A DNA stretch of 64,000 nt from a phage. The notes below the pieces were generated by a model, which saw nothing but the letters and a program-made list of their open reading frames with translations, searched no databases and was not told where the DNA came from. Location: assembly GCA_020619395.1 (NCBI GenBank), contig GCA_020619395.1_4860.1, one strand, 5' to 3'. This document shows, one piece after another, positions 598 through 63,358 of this stretch (the first letter of the stretch is position 1; every line of letters starts with the position of its first letter). The translations under genes and the position numbers were made by a program.

Positions 598-1033
598 AGC
601 GTTCGATAATCACTTTTACGATGTCTTTTACCGGAGGGTAATACCACAGTACCACGCTGTTTCGTCCCAAGTCTTTTGGAAACGTTTGGCAATATGCAAT
701 GTCGGTGCCGAAGCGCTCAGAGAGCTTTAAAACGTTCTCTGGGAACTGACAACCACCACGCCAGTCGTGTGTATAGAGTACCTGCTGTAATAACTTCACA
801 TTAGCATCGAAGAAGTACAGATTTTCTACCGGCGCAATGTGTGGTACCGGAATTGGTGTGTCGGTGAGTACGAACTCCAAACCACCGCATTGTTCTGAAC
901 GCTCCGCTAGGAATTTCAGATGCCATGGCATTAGACCGTGGTCTTCCCAGACGATATTGTTGACCAGTAAACGATCAACGTATTCGTCGTAATCAACCGT
1001 GAACAGTTTCTTCGCCATCGGTAAACGCCTCAT
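596..1033 (-). CDS. hypothetical protein
   Basis: 145-aa ORF in compact minus-strand array; no recognisable motif. Confidence 0.5.
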   Translation of the reverse strand: MRRLPMAKKLFTVDYDEYVDRLLVNNIVWEDHGLMPWHLKFLAERSEQCGGLEFVLTDTPIPVPHIAPVENLYFFDANVKLLQQVLYTHDWRGGCQFPENVLKLSERFGTDIAYCQTFPKDLGRNSVVLWYYPPVKDIVKVIIER

Positions 1034-1934
1034 CTTTTACAGTAAGGGAACCGTTTACTTCGATTTCAGCAGCGGTCATGTCTGCTTCTTTAACGAAGAT
1101 ACCGTCCGCGTTCAGGAAACCCTTACGGTCTTTGATTTCATCCCATGCCAGAGAGAAGCACTGTTCCAGCGTCATATCGTACGCATTAGCCAGCGCATTG
1201 GCGTATTCGACCATCTGAGCGAAGTGACATTCGATCATTACCGCGTCGCTGTTCTCGAAGTGTTTATATTCGAGTTGCTTATCCGAGTCGATGCCTGCCT
1301 GATCCCAGATATAATCAACCGCACAAGTAAGATGGAAACGCATTTTGTGGAACAGGTAATGACTGTTCCCGGCGTGTGGTTTCTTTGAACGTGCGTCGTT
1401 GACGTATGTGCTGATATCGGTTGAGTCAAACTTAATGAGTTCCATCAAGTTAACCAACACGACCAGAGCATCACCGATACCGTCCATGATGTAACGACGT
1501 TTGTTTTTACTGATACCGGTTGCCGCTTCACCGTCTTCTTCGTAGAGTTTGGTGGCTTGGCTATACCAGACGCCGTTATCCAGAATACCACGCGCTTTAG
1601 ACCAACCCATAACGTTAGTAATACATTGTGGGATGGTGTACAAAGGTACGTAACGCGGACGATCAACCGTACCACGATACTCGACACCTTCCAACGTCCA
1701 CGGCATTTCGAAATCATTTATTTCCAAACTCTGGTCGCCCGTGAAGACTTTACCTTCGACGTAAGTGTGACCGGTTTCACTGTTCACGCATAGGGTGTAC
1801 AGTTTCTCAAAGGACCACGGTTCAACAAACTGACGTTGGCAGAATCCAGCCAGAAGCTCATTAATCTGTGCCAGGTACTGGTTAGGTTCAACAATAACGT
1901 TATACGGAATCTGGATAATGAAACGTTCGCCCAT
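993..1934 (-). CDS. hypothetical protein
   Basis: 313-aa ORF; acidic, no recognisable catalytic motif. Confidence 0.55.
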   Translation of the reverse strand: MGERFIIQIPYNVIVEPNQYLAQINELLAGFCQRQFVEPWSFEKLYTLCVNSETGHTYVEGKVFTGDQSLEINDFEMPWTLEGVEYRGTVDRPRYVPLYTIPQCITNVMGWSKARGILDNGVWYSQATKLYEEDGEAATGISKNKRRYIMDGIGDALVVLVNLMELIKFDSTDISTYVNDARSKKPHAGNSHYLFHKMRFHLTCAVDYIWDQAGIDSDKQLEYKHFENSDAVMIECHFAQMVEYANALANAYDMTLEQCFSLAWDEIKDRKGFLNADGIFVKEADMTAAEIEVNGSLTVKDEAFTDGEETVHG

Positions 1935-2197: not shown

Positions 2198-2677
2198 TTA
2201 ATTAATCAGGTGTATCACAACGTCTGGCGTTACTACGTCGACCAGACTGCGATAGATTTTATCGTAACTGAACTTGTTGAAGAAGAAACCCGCTTCGTCG
2301 ACAATAACCAAACCGAATTTCTCGTAGCCGGATACACCAGCACCCGTCGCGCGTTTCCAACCCTCAGGCAAGTAGTTACAGTGCACGGTCAGCCATCCGA
2401 TCCCGGCAGCCTTTTCATGGAACTTCTCCACCACTTCGTTTCGTAACGCTTCGTTGTGAACCAGATACAGAACGCTGCCGTGGAACTTTGCTGACATATC
2501 AACAGCGTGTGTTGTAACGCCTTTCTGACGACCAGCGCCATAGCGGATAGTGCGGAACTCACTCAGTGCAATATGCGGTAAAAAGCCACAGCTACGGGCT
2601 TCATCGGAGTCCAGTTCGATAAGACCTTTGGACAGTTCTTTTACTACGGCACGATAATCGATCCGAGTTATAGACAT
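2198..2677 (-). CDS. hypothetical protein
   Basis: 159-aa ORF; contains VIVDEAGFF-like segment but no P-loop. Confidence 0.5.
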   Translation of the reverse strand: MSITRIDYRAVVKELSKGLIELDSDEARSCGFLPHIALSEFRTIRYGAGRQKGVTTHAVDMSAKFHGSVLYLVHNEALRNEVVEKFHEKAAGIGWLTVHCNYLPEGWKRATGAGVSGYEKFGLVIVDEAGFFFNKFSYDKIYRSLVDVVTPDVVIHLIN

Positions 2678-2688
2678 CTGTTTTCACC

Positions 2689-3456
2689 TTATTTGTAATT
2701 AACCATATACGGCGAGCCCTGCTTAGTAAAGCCAACCGTCATCTTGCTCGCCTCTTCTTTTACCCATGCGGGTAATTCTTCACGGAATGCCGGGTTCAGG
2801 AACCAAATCTGCTCATAGCGCCCGTCAATCTTTTCAACAACACGTTCCCAACCTTCGACGTACGTCAACGAGAACCATTTAGAACGCGCCTGGCGTGCCC
2901 AGTAGTGGTATTCGATGGTTCGACCGACGTGAGTCAAGACATCAATCAGAACTTGGTAGAAGCTCGGCTTTCCGATAACATGGGTATACTCGAAGATAAC
3001 AGACTCTTCGCCAGGGACGAAGTTATCTTCAAAATTCTTCTCCCCTGTTAACGGTACCATTATCGTGTCGTTGTTGATACACAGCAACCAGTGCTTATTC
3101 GAAAATATCGGCGTATCGCCTGAGAAACGAGCCCAGCGATAATTTTCAATCGCGACGCCAATCTGTGGCCGTAGTGTATCGACCACCTTCGCTATCGCTG
3201 CAGGGTCTATCGGCTCATAAACCAGACAAATCGCTTGCGCTTGCTCTCTTTCCTGCTCAGGTTCCGCAGGTCGTGGTCGCCGCCCCAGCATCAAAATCCC
3301 ACTGAGATTAGTTTCCCCAATCTCAATGATTTCTATTTCGCTAGTGGGAAGCTGCCGTTTAGCGTCCTCCATGTCGACGGCCCCTAATAACCCGTATTCG
3401 TAGTCGTCGAATTCCACCGTGTAGAATTCATCGGAGAACGCAAAGAGTTTCATCAT
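2689..3456 (-). CDS. hypothetical protein
   Basis: 255-aa ORF, tight spacing with neighbours. Confidence 0.55.
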   Translation of the reverse strand: MMKLFAFSDEFYTVEFDDYEYGLLGAVDMEDAKRQLPTSEIEIIEIGETNLSGILMLGRRPRPAEPEQEREQAQAICLVYEPIDPAAIAKVVDTLRPQIGVAIENYRWARFSGDTPIFSNKHWLLCINNDTIMVPLTGEKNFEDNFVPGEESVIFEYTHVIGKPSFYQVLIDVLTHVGRTIEYHYWARQARSKWFSLTYVEGWERVVEKIDGRYEQIWFLNPAFREELPAWVKEEASKMTVGFTKQGSPYMVNYK

Positions 3457-3721: not shown

Positions 3722-4242
3722 ATCAGTTTAAAGGTATTACCTTCTAAGCCGGTCGGATGGATAATCATCGCTTCGGTATAGATAGGCTCTTCTTCTGCAA
3801 TACGGTGCTCAGCTGCTAAGCCTGAAAGGTGCATGTAGAGGTCTTCATCCATATCCCCGTTAAAAGATGAGGTCAGGATGAAAGGTGTGGATTCTGCGAT
3901 TTGCAAAAGCGTTTCTTTGCTAATCTGCATCTCCATTGTCCGACGTCGTTCCATCCAACTGCCTTGTTCGTGGATATACGGGTCGGTATTAATGCGAACG
4001 ACAGGTTCCGTAGACACACCCAGACCACGCGACATCATCTGGATGGCCAGAAGCGTCCACCATTCTTGTTCAGCTATCGGGAAACCGATAGCTTTCATCG
4101 TCCCGTCCGGTTGTGGAACGTGCAGTTGTCCACGATGTTCGTCTGGAAACTCGATGATCTTCTGTCCATTGACAGGAATAAACGGCGGTTCGTCCGTAGC
4201 AACCACCACTTTAGGTTTGAATGGAACGACGTTGTCAACCAT
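3706..4242 (-). CDS. hypothetical protein
   Basis: 178-aa ORF. Confidence 0.5.
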   Translation of the reverse strand: MVDNVVPFKPKVVVATDEPPFIPVNGQKIIEFPDEHRGQLHVPQPDGTMKAIGFPIAEQEWWTLLAIQMMSRGLGVSTEPVVRINTDPYIHEQGSWMERRRTMEMQISKETLLQIAESTPFILTSSFNGDMDEDLYMHLSGLAAEHRIAEEEPIYTEAMIIHPTGLEGNTFKLIWVEL

Positions 4243-4254
4243 AAACGCTCCTAA

Positions 4255-5292
4255 TTAGATAGCGACAGGCGCAGATATTTTTTCATGAGACTGATACCCA
4301 ACGATCTCAAAATCTTCGAATTTATAATCGAAGATAGATTCCGGTTTACGCTTGATGATCAGTTTCGGTAAAGGTAACGGCTCACGCGTCAGCTGCAGCT
4401 TGGCCTGCTCCAGATGGTTGGAGTACAGATGTACGTCACCACCACTCCAAACGAAATCGCCTGGCACCATGTTAACTTGCTGAGCTACCATGTGTACGAG
4501 TAATGCGTAAGACGCGATGTTGAACGGTGTTCCCAGGAAGAAGTCTTGGGAACGTGCATACAGCTGACATGAAAGAATGCGGCGAGGTATTTCAAGTGCG
4601 TCCATCTCAACGTGGAACACTGCGTCATCTGCTACAGCTTCATTACTAAAGCGGGAATCGTTAAATTGATCTGGAAGGTTCTTTTCAAACCAATCAAGAC
4701 GCTCGTCGATAGACAGCTCACGAGTGTAGAACTGAAAGAACGCATGACACGGAGCTAACGCCATTTGATCCAACTCACCCACATTCCATGCACTGACAAT
4801 AATACGGCGACTGTCAGGATCGTTACGCAGTTGGTCAATCACCTTGGAGATTTGGTCGTGCAGTTTCAGAAGTACACGCGCATCGAACATTTGTGAACCG
4901 TCGTCCGCGTCGCCATAATCCACGTATCCTGCATCTTGCAGTTTCTCGAGTAAAGCTGCGTTTTTCTTAGGCACCAGTTTCACATCTTTCCAACGTCTCC
5001 ACTGTTCCCCATACAGGGGGCCAAGGTTCCCATTTTCATCTTGCCACTCCCGCCAAATGGTAACGCCGTTATCTTCCAGATATTTGGTGTTGGTATCGCC
5101 ACTAAGGAACCACAGCAGTTCGTGAATAATAGAACGCAGGTGGAGTTTTTTAGTCGTGACTAACGGGAAACCTTTGCGCAAATCAAAACGCATTTGGCGA
5201 CCAAAGACGGAGAGCGTCCCTGTCCCAGTACGATCGTCCTTAACATGCCCTTCATCCAGAATATTCTGCATCATTTCAAGATACTGTTTCAC
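4255..5292 (-). CDS. thyA: thymidylate synthase family protein (ThyA-like) with two large in-frame insertions
   Basis: DRTGTGT, ALAPCH (catalytic Cys), [10 protein letters not shown] and a C-terminus near-identical to E. coli ThyA ([16 protein letters not shown]...APVAI); GTG start at 5292 directly after upstream stop; about 50-aa and about 48-aa insertions relative to E. coli ThyA. Confidence 0.85.
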
Positions 5293-5294
5293 AA

Positions 5295-6233
5295 TTATTT
5301 TCCTTTCAATAAATTCAAAATGTCTCTTAAATCGTCGTTCGCACAAATGTTTACAGCGTTACCGTCGAACTTAACATCAACGCGAGGGTTACGATTGAAC
5401 AACATTTGTTTTCTTACTATCCACGGTTCAAAGTGCGCCTTGAGAAGCTCTTGCAGCTTTTCGTTCATAATGTCCTCCATCCGCAGCAATAGCTGCGGCA
5501 TGGCGACTTCACCGTTATGTTCGGTTTGTAAATCATTCGATGTGGCCAAAAGGCAATTTACAATAATGTCGTGAACTGACTCGTTGGTTTTGTACACCGT
5601 CTGATAGGTTTGTTTCGCCAAATCATCGTCGGATAACGGCAACGATGCTTTGAGCAGTTCGCCGAGCGTGCTTGTCGTTTCAGGCGTCTTAACGAGCTTA
5701 CGATGGCCATTAAAAACAACACGGTCAAACTCCAGCCCGCAACGACACGCCAACAATTGATACTGTCTCATCAACTTACGAAGCAGCGCGCTATAACTCT
5801 TAGGGTCAGGTTCTGGTTCACGCAAAACAACACTAACGGTCTCGACTGCAATTAACATGAGCTGCTGCAGTTGTCCTTCTTTCGTGCCTGTTGTAGTACG
5901 AACAGACACCGCATCACTCAACGGAACGACAATATCACCGAGGTTAGAATGTGGACCGAGGTGTAGCAGCGCGGCAAATGTCCAAATCGATTCACCGATA
6001 CCGGCAGCCACCTTTAAGTTATCCAGTTCATCGACACCTGCTGAGATCCTGCCGAGTGTGACGTAATACTTCACCAACTGACGTTCAGTCGCTTTCTGTT
6101 GGTAAATATCTGTCTTGCGAAACCACTCTTCGACTGCCTGAACTTGCTGAATGATGCTAGGCACAGACTTCTTCCTCCCGATACGCGTAGCAGATTGCAA
6201 AGTTAAGCTGGCCGGTTGCGCGAGAAACGACAA
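5295..6233 (-). CDS. hypothetical protein
   Basis: 312-aa ORF; true start may be internal because the 5' end overlaps next gene by 77 nt. Confidence 0.5.
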
Positions 6234-60212: not shown

Positions 60213-61100
60213 ATGAAAAACGATTTGCATCTTGCGTATAAAACCACATTCAACCACCCGCTGCATCTATCTTCCCCAGATTCAGTGCGTGCGCACCTTG
60301 CTGACAAAGTCAGACTGATTGCACAGATTCCTGGTGAGTGGCCAAAGGTTCGTGGTCGCTTCTTGACCGACAAGAAGAACTACACCGTAGAAAATACGTT
60401 TAAGATCCGTGATATGGTTGCAGAGGCCATCGTTATCTTTAACGGCGATGGTAACTCTCGTGGCGTGTTAGTCGACGGTAAGTATTTCTTCAGTGAAGGG
60501 ATTTTGAACAACAGCGTCGATTTAGAACTGATGTTTACACCGTTTGACGAACTTGAAGCAAAACCGATGGCGCGCCGTTGGTGGAGTCCGGACTATCTGG
60601 GCTCGTTCCCTTACTACTTTGTACTGGTACCTGCCGATACGGAAACGTATTTCGACACCGAACCGTACATCGATATCGAGGGATATAAAGAACTCGGCAT
60701 CACCCGTTTAGCGGACATGATGGCGTATAGCTATAAGTTCGTGTGGGATAAAAAGCGTTCTGTCTGGTATGCGTTGACTGACGATTTTGAAATCACCAAA
60801 CGTATTCGTAAGCCGTGGATGCAACACCTGGTTCAAACCCGATATGGGGATTACCCGGCGACAGAAGCGGATTTGAGTAAGCTGGTAAGCTTCCTCTTAA
60901 CGAAGGTGGATTTAACGAAAGAAGAAGCAGAAGCTGTTTCTGAGATTCGTAGTCGTTCGGTAACGTTGGCCGATTTGAAACGCTTGAACGAAAGACACGC
61001 CGACCTGAACAAAATTTTAGCTGCCTATCACGACCCGATGTTACTGGTGCCTGGCGCTAATGTAGACGAAGATCCTTTATTCGCCATTGATTATATTTAA
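60213..61100 (+). CDS. hypothetical protein (cluster-associated, unknown function)
   Basis: 295-aa ORF with SD ggag, lying between precursor peptides and radical-SAM genes. Confidence 0.6.
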   Translation: MKNDLHLAYKTTFNHPLHLSSPDSVRAHLADKVRLIAQIPGEWPKVRGRFLTDKKNYTVENTFKIRDMVAEAIVIFNGDGNSRGVLVDGKYFFSEGILNNSVDLELMFTPFDELEAKPMARRWWSPDYLGSFPYYFVLVPADTETYFDTEPYIDIEGYKELGITRLADMMAYSYKFVWDKKRSVWYALTDDFEITKRIRKPWMQHLVQTRYGDYPATEADLSKLVSFLLTKVDLTKEEAEAVSEIRSRSVTLADLKRLNERHADLNKILAAYHDPMLLVPGANVDEDPLFAIDYI

Positions 61101-61122
61101 AAATATACTGGAGCAACCTGCA

Positions 61123-62037
61123 ATGACAGATCAAGTAGAATCCAGGATCTCGTCTGAACTGTACGACAAACCGTCAATTCTGTCGGTTGTCGCAACTTCT
61201 AAGTGTAACTTAGACTGTAGCTTCTGTGGAGGGGCTTATTACATGGATAGAGAAGATACTTCTCGTGAGTTTCAACGCGAAGAGATTCTCTCGATTTTAG
61301 AGAAGAATCCGGATATCGGTGAGATTCATTGGACGGGCGGTGAGCCGCTGTTAGCGCAGCGTAAGATTGAAGACTTCGTGAACGAGTTGAAGGAGTCTCA
61401 TCCGAACCTCCGTCATCACATGTACACCAACGGTTTAAAGATGCGTAAATCACATCTGCCGTTGCTGAAACAGTTCGACCTTATCTTTGTGTCCATTGAC
61501 GGCTACAAGAAGTCGGAACGTCCGTTTATGAACTTTGTAAACGGTGGTAATCACGAAGCGCTGGAAGTGCTGTACGAGCTGGACAACTATTACACCTGGG
61601 GTGTGATGACGCGTGACCAGTTAGGTGATAAACGCTGGTACGAAGATTTCATCGAGCTGCACCGAGCAATCTATCATTACCGTCCAGGTGGTGTGTCGTT
61701 GTTGTTTGATGCGATGATGCCGAAACCGTTATCGCCAGACCACGTCATGAACTTCATGTACGGGTATTGGAAAATACTCGACAATATCGAACGCCTTAAC
61801 ATGCAGAACGATTCTGAATGTGGGCTCGCGATCAGTAAAATGTTCGATACCGAGTGCAACACGTGCAGTGAAGTGCTGTGGCTTAACGCCGACGGTACGC
61901 AGGAGCAAATTCAGAACGCCCCAGAGATATTGGAAGTCGGCTGTAATCGCCTGGCGCGTTCTATCGGCGTTGATGCGTATAACTACATCAACCGTGTAAT
62001 TTCTGCTAAGCGTAAACGGGCGGCGAACAATGAGTAA
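61123..62037 (+). CDS. radical SAM enzyme (peptide-maturase-like)
   Basis: CNLDCSFC (CxxxCxxC) near N-terminus, GGEPLL SAM-binding motif, C-terminal extra Cys (ECG...CNTC...GC); ATG 61123 with SD tggag. Confidence 0.8.
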   Translation: MTDQVESRISSELYDKPSILSVVATSKCNLDCSFCGGAYYMDREDTSREFQREEILSILEKNPDIGEIHWTGGEPLLAQRKIEDFVNELKESHPNLRHHMYTNGLKMRKSHLPLLKQFDLIFVSIDGYKKSERPFMNFVNGGNHEALEVLYELDNYYTWGVMTRDQLGDKRWYEDFIELHRAIYHYRPGGVSLLFDAMMPKPLSPDHVMNFMYGYWKILDNIERLNMQNDSECGLAISKMFDTECNTCSEVLWLNADGTQEQIQNAPEILEVGCNRLARSIGVDAYNYINRVISAKRKRAANNE

Positions 62038-63358
62038 TAGCGAACAGCAAATCCAGTACACACCACGCACGTATCAGGTTGTGACTAACCTGTCATGTAA
62101 CCTGGACTGCGAATACTGCTACGAGCGTAAATATCCGCGTAACAACAAAGTAGCAGACGTGATTGATTTTATCCACGCTTGTTTCGAGCGCGATAAAGAT
62201 ATCCCGAACGTTGAAGTCATCATCGATATCATCGGTGGTGAGCCGTTCATGCAGCCTAAACTTCTTTTGGCGGCCTTTGAAACCGCAGAGAAGTTATGCG
62301 CAGAACACAATCGCCCGTATATGTTCAGTATCTCCACGAACGGTACGCTTCTGGACCGTCCGCTGAACAAAGAAATTATCGAGCGCTGGAAAGACAAACT
62401 GTCTATTGGGGTCTCCATCGATGGTTTACCTGAAGTCCATGACAAATATCGTATCTTTACCACGACGCGTGAAGGGTCGTACGAAGCTGCGGTACGCGGT
62501 TACAATTATCTGAAGAGTGTTGGCATCGCTGAACTGGGCGTAAAAGCGACGTTTACGATCGATACATTGCCGCACTATGCCGCCAGCATGAAATCGTTAA
62601 TTGACATGTCCGGCGGTGGTACCATTTCTGGTAATGTAACGTACGAAGATATCCTGCCGCGCCATATGGCGTTGGATATCGCGAACCAGATGATGGACGT
62701 GATGGACTACTGGATTGAGAAGGGTCTGCACACCAACCCGCGTAACACGATTACACACATCATCCCGGATGGCCTGAACTTTATGGCAACTTGGGACCCG
62801 GATTGGCGTGACAAACTCTTACACGACGACTCTGTTCGTCTCGACCCAGAACGCCTGAAACCGTACTGCGGTACGTTGACGCACATGACCTGTCTCGGCT
62901 TTGATCGCAAGATTTACGGTTGTAACCGTTTCATGTCCACGGTAACTTCCCGCTCTGCTGTAGCGGAACTGGTCGGTCGTGAGTTTGTGAGTCTGGACGG
63001 TGGTAAGCTGTTAGAAGAGATTCAAACGCAGTACACCAACTACCCAGAAACCTGTTTAGGGTGTCCGATGAAACACAGCTGCGGTAGCTGCGCAGCGGCA
63101 TCGTACGAAAACGGTGAAGGTACACTGGAAGACCGTAAAGCGTATCACGCCGAGCGTCGTCAGTGTGGTTGGACTACTGCGAAGCTGATGGCGGCGGAAT
63201 ATTGGTATCAGAAAACTGGTACGACTCGCGCATCAGATTTGCACGATAAATCCATGTGCTATTGTTCACGTTGTGTACGCCAACGTGCCGAAGCAGAAAA
63301 ATTACAAAACGGAGCCCAGAATGAAGTCAATACTGATTCACAATTTTACGAAGCGTAA
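62030..63358 (+). CDS. radical SAM/SPASM-domain enzyme (anSME/sactisynthase-like)
   Basis: CNLDCEYC (CxxxCxxC), GGEPF, C-terminal SPASM-type cluster CLGCPMKHSCGSC plus further Cys; start overlaps upstream stop (ATGAGTAATAG). Confidence 0.85.
   Translation: MSNSEQQIQYTPRTYQVVTNLSCNLDCEYCYERKYPRNNKVADVIDFIHACFERDKDIPNVEVIIDIIGGEPFMQPKLLLAAFETAEKLCAEHNRPYMFSISTNGTLLDRPLNKEIIERWKDKLSIGVSIDGLPEVHDKYRIFTTTREGSYEAAVRGYNYLKSVGIAELGVKATFTIDTLPHYAASMKSLIDMSGGGTISGNVTYEDILPRHMALDIANQMMDVMDYWIEKGLHTNPRNTITHIIPDGLNFMATWDPDWRDKLLHDDSVRLDPERLKPYCGTLTHMTCLGFDRKIYGCNRFMSTVTSRSAVAELVGREFVSLDGGKLLEEIQTQYTNYPETCLGCPMKHSCGSCAAASYENGEGTLEDRKAYHAERRQCGWTTAKLMAAEYWYQKTGTTRASDLHDKSMCYCSRCVRQRAEAEKLQNGAQNEVNTDSQFYEA

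Follow-up and report, generated by a model that had tools for sequence, protein, structure and literature searches.

Does a phage homologue of thymidylate synthase that carries two large insertions still make thymidylate, or has its chemistry changed, and what are the insertions? The question is raised by a minus-strand, thyA-type gene at positions 4,255 to 5,292 of a 64,000-nucleotide (nt) stretch of phage DNA (NCBI GenBank assembly GCA_020619395.1, contig GCA_020619395.1_4860.1; hereafter the window, meaning the whole stretch). We find that its 345-residue product is very probably a canonical ThyA-class thymidylate synthase with folded surface inserts that are common to its phage lineage, and that these inserts are hypervariable cassettes which, as judged from sequence, reassort independently of the core, a new observation. 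The window is a piece of an SPN3US-like jumbo phage of the genus Seoulvirus: by megablast the gene has 93-99% nucleotide identity to 33 Seoulvirus records, all of them annotated ‘thymidylate synthase’, with 98.8% DNA identity to the homologue in Salmonella phage SPLA5c and 93.5% to gene product 229 (gp229) of SPN3US. The thymidylate synthase annotation is already in databases, and the function that it names is an ordinary one.

Profile searches place the protein squarely among the thymidylate synthases. It matches Pfam PF00303 with E=1.4e-112 (375.6 bits, cut-off 24.3), exceeds the curated cut-off of the NCBIfam thymidylate synthase equivalog NF002499 (437.5 bits against 405) as well as that of NF002497 (409.7 bits against 327), and its PHROG match is phrog 160, ‘thymidylate synthase’. 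When compared by phmmer with the sequences in the Protein Data Bank (PDB), it aligns to Escherichia coli ThyA in three ungapped blocks (E=3e-124; Table 1), with 76% identity over 264 aligned columns and ~70% identity at the nucleotide level. A preliminary description of the locus had called the protein near-identical to the E. coli enzyme, which at these values is too strong, although there is full identity in the catalytic motifs and in the C-terminal APVAI. An AlphaFold2 monomer model built on a 53-sequence alignment has a mean confidence (pLDDT, predicted local distance difference test) of 95.7 and a predicted template modelling score (pTM) of 0.92, and a Foldseek search of the PDB superposes its core with that of E. 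coli thymidylate synthase, with a template modelling (TM) score of 0.95 when normalised by the target and 0.73 when normalised by the query. Recent capture of the gene from a host thyA, or its gene conversion by one, was considered and rejected, given that identity to all 5,426 E. coli genomes is only ~70% at the nucleotide level and comes in three pieces.

Twenty-odd functional residues of the E. coli enzyme could be mapped onto the phage protein, and all are kept except Q165. In E. coli numbering, those kept include R21, K48, H51, E58, I79, W80, W83, Y94, L143, R166, S167, D169, F176, N177, H207, Y209 and the C-terminal PVAI, while E. coli R126/R127 correspond to R162/R163 and C146-H147 to C182-H183 of the phage sequence. 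The catalytic pair C182-H183, together with E58 and Y94, is invariant in 53 relatives. Retained likewise are the arginines that bind the phosphate of deoxyuridine monophosphate (dUMP; R21, R162, R163 and R247), the ligands of its 3'-OH (H288 and Y290), the asparagine that selects uracil (N258, equivalent to E. coli N177, which is Asp in deoxycytidine monophosphate (dCMP) hydroxymethylase), and the elements for folate binding and hydride transfer (W80, W83, D250 and a C-terminal tail reading ...SAPVAI, the last four residues of which are those of E. coli). R162 and R163, the residues donated across the dimer, are also conserved; their E. coli counterparts R126'/R127' reach from one subunit into the active site of the other.

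Between the three core blocks lie the two inserts, which together add 81 residues relative to E. coli ThyA. The first replaces a loop of 7 residues (E. coli 103-109) with 43, a net gain of 36, and the second replaces 3 residues in the hairpin at E. coli 155-158 with 48, a net gain of 45. The preliminary description had placed an insertion of about 50 residues in the small-domain region and another of about 48 between FQFY and LSCQLY. The former is real, although it is shorter than supposed and stands just past the small domain, the whole of which aligns ungapped to E. coli ThyA; the latter is exact (residues 192-239, 48 residues). Both inserts are confidently folded and packed in the AlphaFold2 model, with pLDDT above 90 at most residues. 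Insert 1 is modelled as a strand (101-108), a helix (112-120) and two further strands (124-130 and 137-145), with pLDDT of 79-96 over the block, and insert 2 as four helices (195-205, 207-212, 217-221 and 223-232). Foldseek found no solved structure in the PDB covering either insert, searches of PDB sequences with the inserts alone gave no significant match, and no paper describing these inserts was found in the literature.

Neither insert is peculiar to this phage. In a word-indexed search, relatives down to 65% identity carry both, one group of them on ~225-kb contigs syntenic with SPN3US. An exhaustive HMMER search of 1.84 billion cluster representatives at 50% identity returned thousands of thymidylate synthases, and 146 of the best 149 could be mapped to E. 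coli numbering, with the proviso that the ranking is biased towards proteins with inserts, since these form part of the query. Among these nearest clusters, 103 of 146 have at least 20 residues at the hairpin site (E. coli 152-161; median 40 residues), 92 of 146 have at least 15 at site 1 (E. coli 99-112), 69 of 146 have both of the inserts seen in the window, and 41 of 146 have an insert at the site known from L. casei. The mapped relatives are metagenomic proteins; one is encoded on a 370-kb phage contig, with a dihydrofolate reductase (DHFR) gene 750 bp downstream of it. Whereas the centre of insert 2 is variable, its anchors are conserved among the 49 carriers aligned: E197 is present in 38 of 49, R198 in 46, P236 in 46 and R238 in 35, and L230/D231 in most. 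We accordingly define a ‘long ThyA’ subfamily by the possession of 30-70 residues at E. coli 155-158, E-R anchors after FQFYxxxLxxx and P-x-R before LSCQLY. The window protein falls within this definition, its insert 2 containing ELSIDER, and the anchors are kept in 35-46 of the 49 carriers. The two-insert architecture is a hallmark of this large, uncharacterised and mostly phage-borne subfamily.

Two further observations concern members of this wider set. At the insert-1 site, 31 of the 92 carriers have 100-270 residues, and some 30 cluster representatives of this kind (P0121, P0133, P0130, P0150 and P0173, among others) show no Pfam domain there, P0130 giving a weak NUMOD-like match to I-HmuI; such giant inserts could be novel inserted domains, or read-through of introns or homing endonucleases in the gene calls. 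Separately, the SPN3US-syntenic jumbo phage on ~225-kb gut-metagenome contigs (L004/L005), whose protein P0041 is labelled Shigella flexneri or Salmonella in NCBI, is widespread in assemblies carrying Shigella or Salmonella labels (72 index blocks). The thymidylate synthase P0041 has the motif LSCFYMMRSND, with Met at the position of Q165 and an RSND resembling that of hydroxymethylases, and it keeps N177, H147, W80/W83 and the C-terminal tail.

An alternative to thymidylate synthesis is hydroxymethylation of dUMP (or dCMP), the product of which would be incorporated into phage DNA and hypermodified, with the inserts remodelling the active site to admit water. A role of this kind is known for thymidylate synthase homologues of SPO1, ViI, M6 and T4 (PMC8989533), and it was on such grounds that the preliminary description had raised a link to hypermodification. 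The alignment against characterised enzymes of both kinds for which it called does not bear this out, since the phage protein shares 76% identity over aligned columns with E. coli ThyA but only 27% with T4 gp42, a dCMP hydroxymethylase (BLASTP E=7e-3), and 22% with SPO1 gp29, a dUMP hydroxymethylase (E=3e-4). Its score lies above the cut-off of the thymidylate synthase equivalog, it keeps N258 and an intact PVAI tail, and both insert loops are far in sequence from the catalytic residues.

The genes available to the phage point the same way. By tblastn, the whole genome of SPN3US holds a single gene of the thymidylate synthase family, and it also encodes a DHFR (gp58; 42% identical to E. coli FolA by tblastn; Pfam DHFR_1 at 1e-43) and a thymidylate kinase (gp100; L003, 33525-34148; Pfam Thymidylate_kin at 1.3e-16). 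Thymidylate synthase oxidises folate, which a hydroxymethylase does not, and so calls for a DHFR; a phage that turned its one family member to hydroxymethylation would have no second enzyme for making T. The same trio of thymidylate synthase, DHFR and deoxythymidine monophosphate (dTMP) kinase has been described in 21 related SPFM phages (PMC6614189), and the predicted gene set of SPN3US is that of the canonical dTMP route. One report calls gp100 of SPN3US a predicted thymidylate synthase (PMC5694885); we rejected it as a second such enzyme, as both GenBank and Pfam identify it as a thymidylate kinase and tblastn finds only the one family gene. No dTTPase/dTMPase, 5-HMUDK or aGPT-Pplase gene (from the list in PMC8989533) is annotated in SPN3US or in the region of SPLA5c covered here (~148-228 kb), a negative that concerns annotated genes, as profile scans for 5-HMUDK and aGPT-Pplase did not take in every open reading frame (ORF). 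Taken together, the identity values, the equivalog score, the kept residues, the pathway genes and the lack of annotated replacement genes make a hydroxymethylase very unlikely, and a plain thymidylate synthase with lineage-typical insertions, the outcome that the preliminary description had opposed to its own suggestion, is what the evidence supports on the sequence side.

Nevertheless, several points weigh against our assignment. The single substitution among the functional residues places Ala246 (codon 4555-4557, minus strand) at the position of Q165, which is Gln in 36 of 49 relatives. Q165 is a second-shell residue that helps to orient Asn177, so its replacement by Ala could bring a subtle shift in pyrimidine selectivity, which is a caveat rather than a contradiction. 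Two MazG-like paralogues flank thyA, and a dTTP-degrading activity of theirs would fit thymine replacement as well as it would fit the supply of dUMP from dUTP; two radical-SAM genes stand towards the opposite end of the window. Where insert 2 lies with respect to the partner subunit's active site, taken up below, is deduced from the general thymidylate synthase fold, and our search of the literature found no enzymology, complementation or nucleoside analysis for this protein or for any long ThyA. Apart from these points, close relatives such as P0001 read YQRSADFFLGV around the Q165 position. The radical-SAM genes (61087-62037 and 62030-63358, both on the plus strand) are adjacent and overlapping, match Pfam PF04055 at 1e-15 and 1e-14, and are homologues of SPN3US gp164/gp163; no link between this pair and thyA was found, and its neighbours are unannotated.

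With the protein taken as a thymidylate synthase, we infer that it makes dTMP, and the conserved residues suggest how. The reaction would convert dUMP and 5,10-methylene-tetrahydrofolate to dTMP and dihydrofolate. Cys182 would attack C6 of dUMP, with the phosphate held by R21 and R247 together with R162'/R163' of the partner subunit, and N258 would select uracil. W80, W83, D250 and the C-terminal carboxylate would close over the folate, favouring hydride transfer rather than hydration, after which the phage DHFR would recycle the folate and the phage dTMP kinase would take dTMP onward. The enzyme probably works in the cytoplasm, a location that we presume by analogy with other phages that form a nucleus, because fusions of thymidylate synthase to green fluorescent protein (GFP) are kept out of the phage nucleus in PhiPA3 and 201phi2-1.

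The variability of the inserts becomes apparent when close relatives are compared. In the relatives P0021-P0025 the core is 92-100% identical to that of the window protein and insert 1 is 98-100% identical, yet insert 2 is only 31% identical; in P0026-P0028 the core (85-95%) is accompanied by an insert 1 of 23-26% and an insert 2 of 38-40% identity; and in P0029 the corresponding values are 77-87% for the core, 74% for insert 1 and 12% for insert 2. In DNA comparisons, the 241-kb contig of another phage (L010) matches the window at 93-100% identity over most of a ~4-kb region surrounding thyA, save for a few 60-nt windows that score lower (e.g. 0.67 near the 3' end of thyA), and against this background two patches diverge clearly. 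One is the centre of insert 2, and the other is the gene directly upstream of thyA, at 30-68% identity. Clustering of insert alleles extends the pattern, since a single cluster of cores at least 85% identical combines three alleles of insert 1 with four of insert 2, individual insert alleles recur on different cores, and at least 10 unrelated-looking insert-1 alleles exist among the relatives. Because alleles reassort across cores in this way, recombination swaps the modules separately from the remainder of the gene. An alternative allele of insert 2 is still predicted to form a helical module, with lower confidence at its centre. The ends of each module are conserved anchors around a hypervariable centre, and exchange between phages probably proceeds by recombination at these conserved flanks. 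A neighbour-joining tree built on core columns places E. coli-type ThyA closer to the SPN3US-like group than any other insert-free sequence, inside a bush of insert-bearing sequences; the tree is star-like and weak, and thus only a hint, and it fits modules that may be able to move between backbones.

Mosaicism around thyA is not confined to the inserts: Seoulvirus phages share 95-100% identity over the N-terminal core of the gene but 87-98% over its C-terminal third, a stretch that is likewise mosaic. In Salmonella phage SPLA3 (L017), a gene of 255 residues at 2236-3003 is inserted immediately upstream of thyA, overlaps the thyA start at 3000 and matches phrog_8790 (5e-50) and phrog_374 (6e-40), which are restriction endonuclease/HNH families; it is absent from the window. 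By its matches, this gene may be a free-standing homing nuclease driving local gene conversion, and mobile nucleases are a plausible driver of cassette exchange.

What the inserts do is a separate matter. Our best guess is that they provide a surface for contacts with other proteins, or extend the dimer interface, and do not change the chemistry. The FQFY...LSCQLYQRS hairpin is the heart of the dimer-interface sheet, and insert 2 may therefore lie near the partner subunit and could reach its active site. That the inserts are an exchangeable interaction surface, maintained on a canonical thymidylate synthase by conflict or by partner-matching selection, is possible but on balance doubtful. Candidate roles under this proposal are docking to the MazG-like neighbour, to DHFR or to an assembly for deoxynucleoside triphosphate (dNTP) synthesis; avoidance of mixed dimers with host ThyA, which is 76% identical; and escape from a host factor that senses or inhibits thymidylate synthase. 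In its favour, over 100 divergent clusters retain modules of similar size with conserved anchors, whereas the module centres bear no relation to each other in near-identical phages and reassort independently, and the comparison with L010 in which insert 2 diverges also shows replacement of the MazG-like gene coupled to thyA on its upstream side. The inserts of T4 thymidylate synthase have, moreover, been proposed as contacts within the dNTP-synthetase complex. This thymidylate synthase cluster was also flagged in a screen for positive selection (PMC6614189). However, the upstream gene and insert 2 change together in only one genome pair, and relaxed constraint with frequent phage recombination would also give hypervariability and mosaicism. 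The duller alternative is that the inserts are tolerated decoration, fast-diverging and shuffled by ordinary phage recombination.

It could also be supposed that the inserts are relics of mobile elements, that is, footprints of introns, inteins or homing endonucleases that became fixed in frame and have no function of their own. Mobile introns and homing endonucleases are well known to target thyA/td, and several of the phage matches (PTm1, Apostate and the T4-like td) are split by HNH or homing-endonuclease genes. The HNH/restriction-endonuclease-like gene of SPLA3 abuts thyA, and some metagenomic thymidylate synthases carry 180-270 residues at site 1, one of them with the weak NUMOD-like match. 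We nevertheless regard such an origin as improbable, given that both inserts are folded and packed, that their anchor residues are conserved across 49 divergent sequences, and that neither an intein nor a group I intron could be as short as 43-48 residues. A relic of a group I intron or other RNA element was looked for and rejected, as Rfam gave no match at E<=1 over 3900-5700.

Whichever of these accounts applies, the comparison reveals a folded module on the dimer-interface hairpin, often with a second in a nearby loop, within a large and unstudied family of phage thymidylate synthases. Hypervariable, exchanged cassettes inside a strongly conserved gene, as seen in Seoulvirus phages, are unusual for a central metabolic enzyme, and they offer a cheap experimental handle on the organisation of nucleotide synthesis in jumbo phages, or on a possible role of such enzymes in phage-host conflict.

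Table 1 Features of the thyA locus, with positions given in the window
Feature	Position	Strand	Remarks
thyA-type thymidylate synthase coding sequence	4255..5292	minus	345 residues; GTG 5292..5290, TAA 4257..4255; orthologue of SPN3US gp229
Core block N, residues 1-102	4987..5292	minus	ungapped against E. coli ThyA 1-102; contains R21, E58, W80, W83, Y94
Insert 1, residues 103-145	4858..4986	minus	small alpha/beta module in place of E. coli loop 103-109
Core block M, residues 146-191	4720..4857	minus	equals E. coli 110-155; R162/R163 (E. coli R126'/R127'), catalytic Cys182-His183, Cys codon 4747..4749
Insert 2, residues 192-239	4576..4719	minus	helical module at the tip of the beta-hairpin equivalent to E. 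coli 155-158
Exchanged cassette in insert 2	4573..4692	minus	gene nt 601-720; 37-47% identity to a phage (L010) otherwise 93-100% identical
Core block C, residues 240-345	4258..4575	minus	equals E. coli 159-264; R247, S248, D250, N258, H288, Y290, PVAI; A246 at E. coli Q165
Shine-Dalgarno AAGGA	5301..5305	minus	8 nt 5' of GTG; within the last codons of the upstream ORF
Upstream coupled ORF	5295..6233	minus	homologue of SPN3US gp228; phrog_10269; weak MazG-like matches; start codon uncertain
MazG-like nucleotide pyrophosphohydrolase	993..1934	minus	phrog_7855, E=1.7e-145; 2.3 kb downstream of thyA

The coordinates of the gene and its surroundings are summarised in Table 1. Both the ORF listing and the reading of the sequence indicate that the thymidylate synthase ORF is real and on the minus strand. 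The GTG start directly after the upstream stop, noted in the preliminary description, is confirmed: the upstream ORF ends in TAA (5297..5295), a spacer of 2 nt follows and then the GTG, with AAGGA 8 nt upstream of it. In GenBank, by contrast, the thyA start is set at an ATG 21 nt downstream (197633 in SPN3US, JN641803; 207470 in SPLA5c, OR413585; 339 residues, equivalent to window position 5271). The GTG is the better supported of the two, because in the phmmer alignment the KQYLE of residues 2-6 agrees with the N-terminal sequence of E. coli ThyA. Use of the GTG with its Shine-Dalgarno sequence restores the conserved N-terminus MKQYLE, and the GTG is also used by SPLA3 and by most database proteins. 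The position of AAGGA inside the end of the upstream ORF implies translational coupling.

The weak matches of the upstream ORF suggest that it is a distant MazG-like paralogue, and it and the MazG-like protein encoded downstream of thyA detect each other weakly. The usual acidic motif of MazG is not obvious in the window copy of the upstream ORF, which in L010 is replaced by a ~50%-identical allele, and the downstream protein itself matches Pfam MazG at only 18.9 bits, below the cut-off; a Pfam search of ten neighbouring ORFs gave nothing beyond this sub-threshold match. Speculatively, supply of dUMP from dUTP by these MazG-like neighbours would fit a thymidylate synthase operon.

Comparison with known systems places the phage enzyme closest to E. 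coli ThyA (PDB 2TSC, 1TYS), with which it shares the catalytic Cys-His pair, the four phosphate-binding arginines, Asn177, Trp80/83, Asp169, His207/Tyr209 and PVAI, and from which it differs by the 81 residues of the two modules, absent in E. coli, and by Ala in place of Q165. Large inserts without altered chemistry are known from the thymidylate synthases of L. casei and E. faecalis (PDB 3UWL), bona fide enzymes that tolerate a large folded insert of 50 residues. That insert lies elsewhere, between E. coli ~84 and 94, and in a structural alignment the 51 extra residues of the E. faecalis enzyme face gaps in the phage protein, the 396 columns being made up of 264 core positions plus 51 and 81.

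Among viral models, the best structural match is the thymidylate synthase of 201phi2-1 (B3FJL1), whose TMq of 0.92 indicates that the match extends over the inserts. The phiKZ-like enzymes (201phi2-1 B3FJL1, PhiPA3 TMS and phiKZ gp235) are, however, only ~35% identical to the window protein and longer (457 residues), with further insertions and unrelated insert sequences. Their GFP fusions in PhiPA3 and 201phi2-1 are those mentioned above, and knock-down of phiKZ gp235 weakly reduces plaquing. T4 Td resembles the present system in being a phage thymidylate synthase paired with a phage DHFR. It has small inserts relative to the E. coli enzyme, one of them at the insert-1 loop, which are the proposed contacts within the dNTP-synthetase complex, and the T4 td gene is targeted by a mobile intron and a homing endonuclease. 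T4-like enzymes are nonetheless only ~36-38% identical to the phage protein and lack an insert at the 155-158 hairpin, and the window gene itself is uninterrupted.

Finally, the hydroxymethylases SPO1 gp29 and T4 gp42 share with the phage protein the superfamily fold, the catalytic Cys, Glu58, Tyr94 and Arg166. T4 gp42 differs in having Asp at the position of Asn177 and in lacking the PVAI tail, while keeping Trp80 (as W82), whereas SPO1 gp29 keeps Asn at 177, lacks Trp80 and has a long and different C-terminal extension in place of PVAI. His147 and Trp83 are replaced in both of these hydroxymethylases, and both residues are kept in the phage protein described here.

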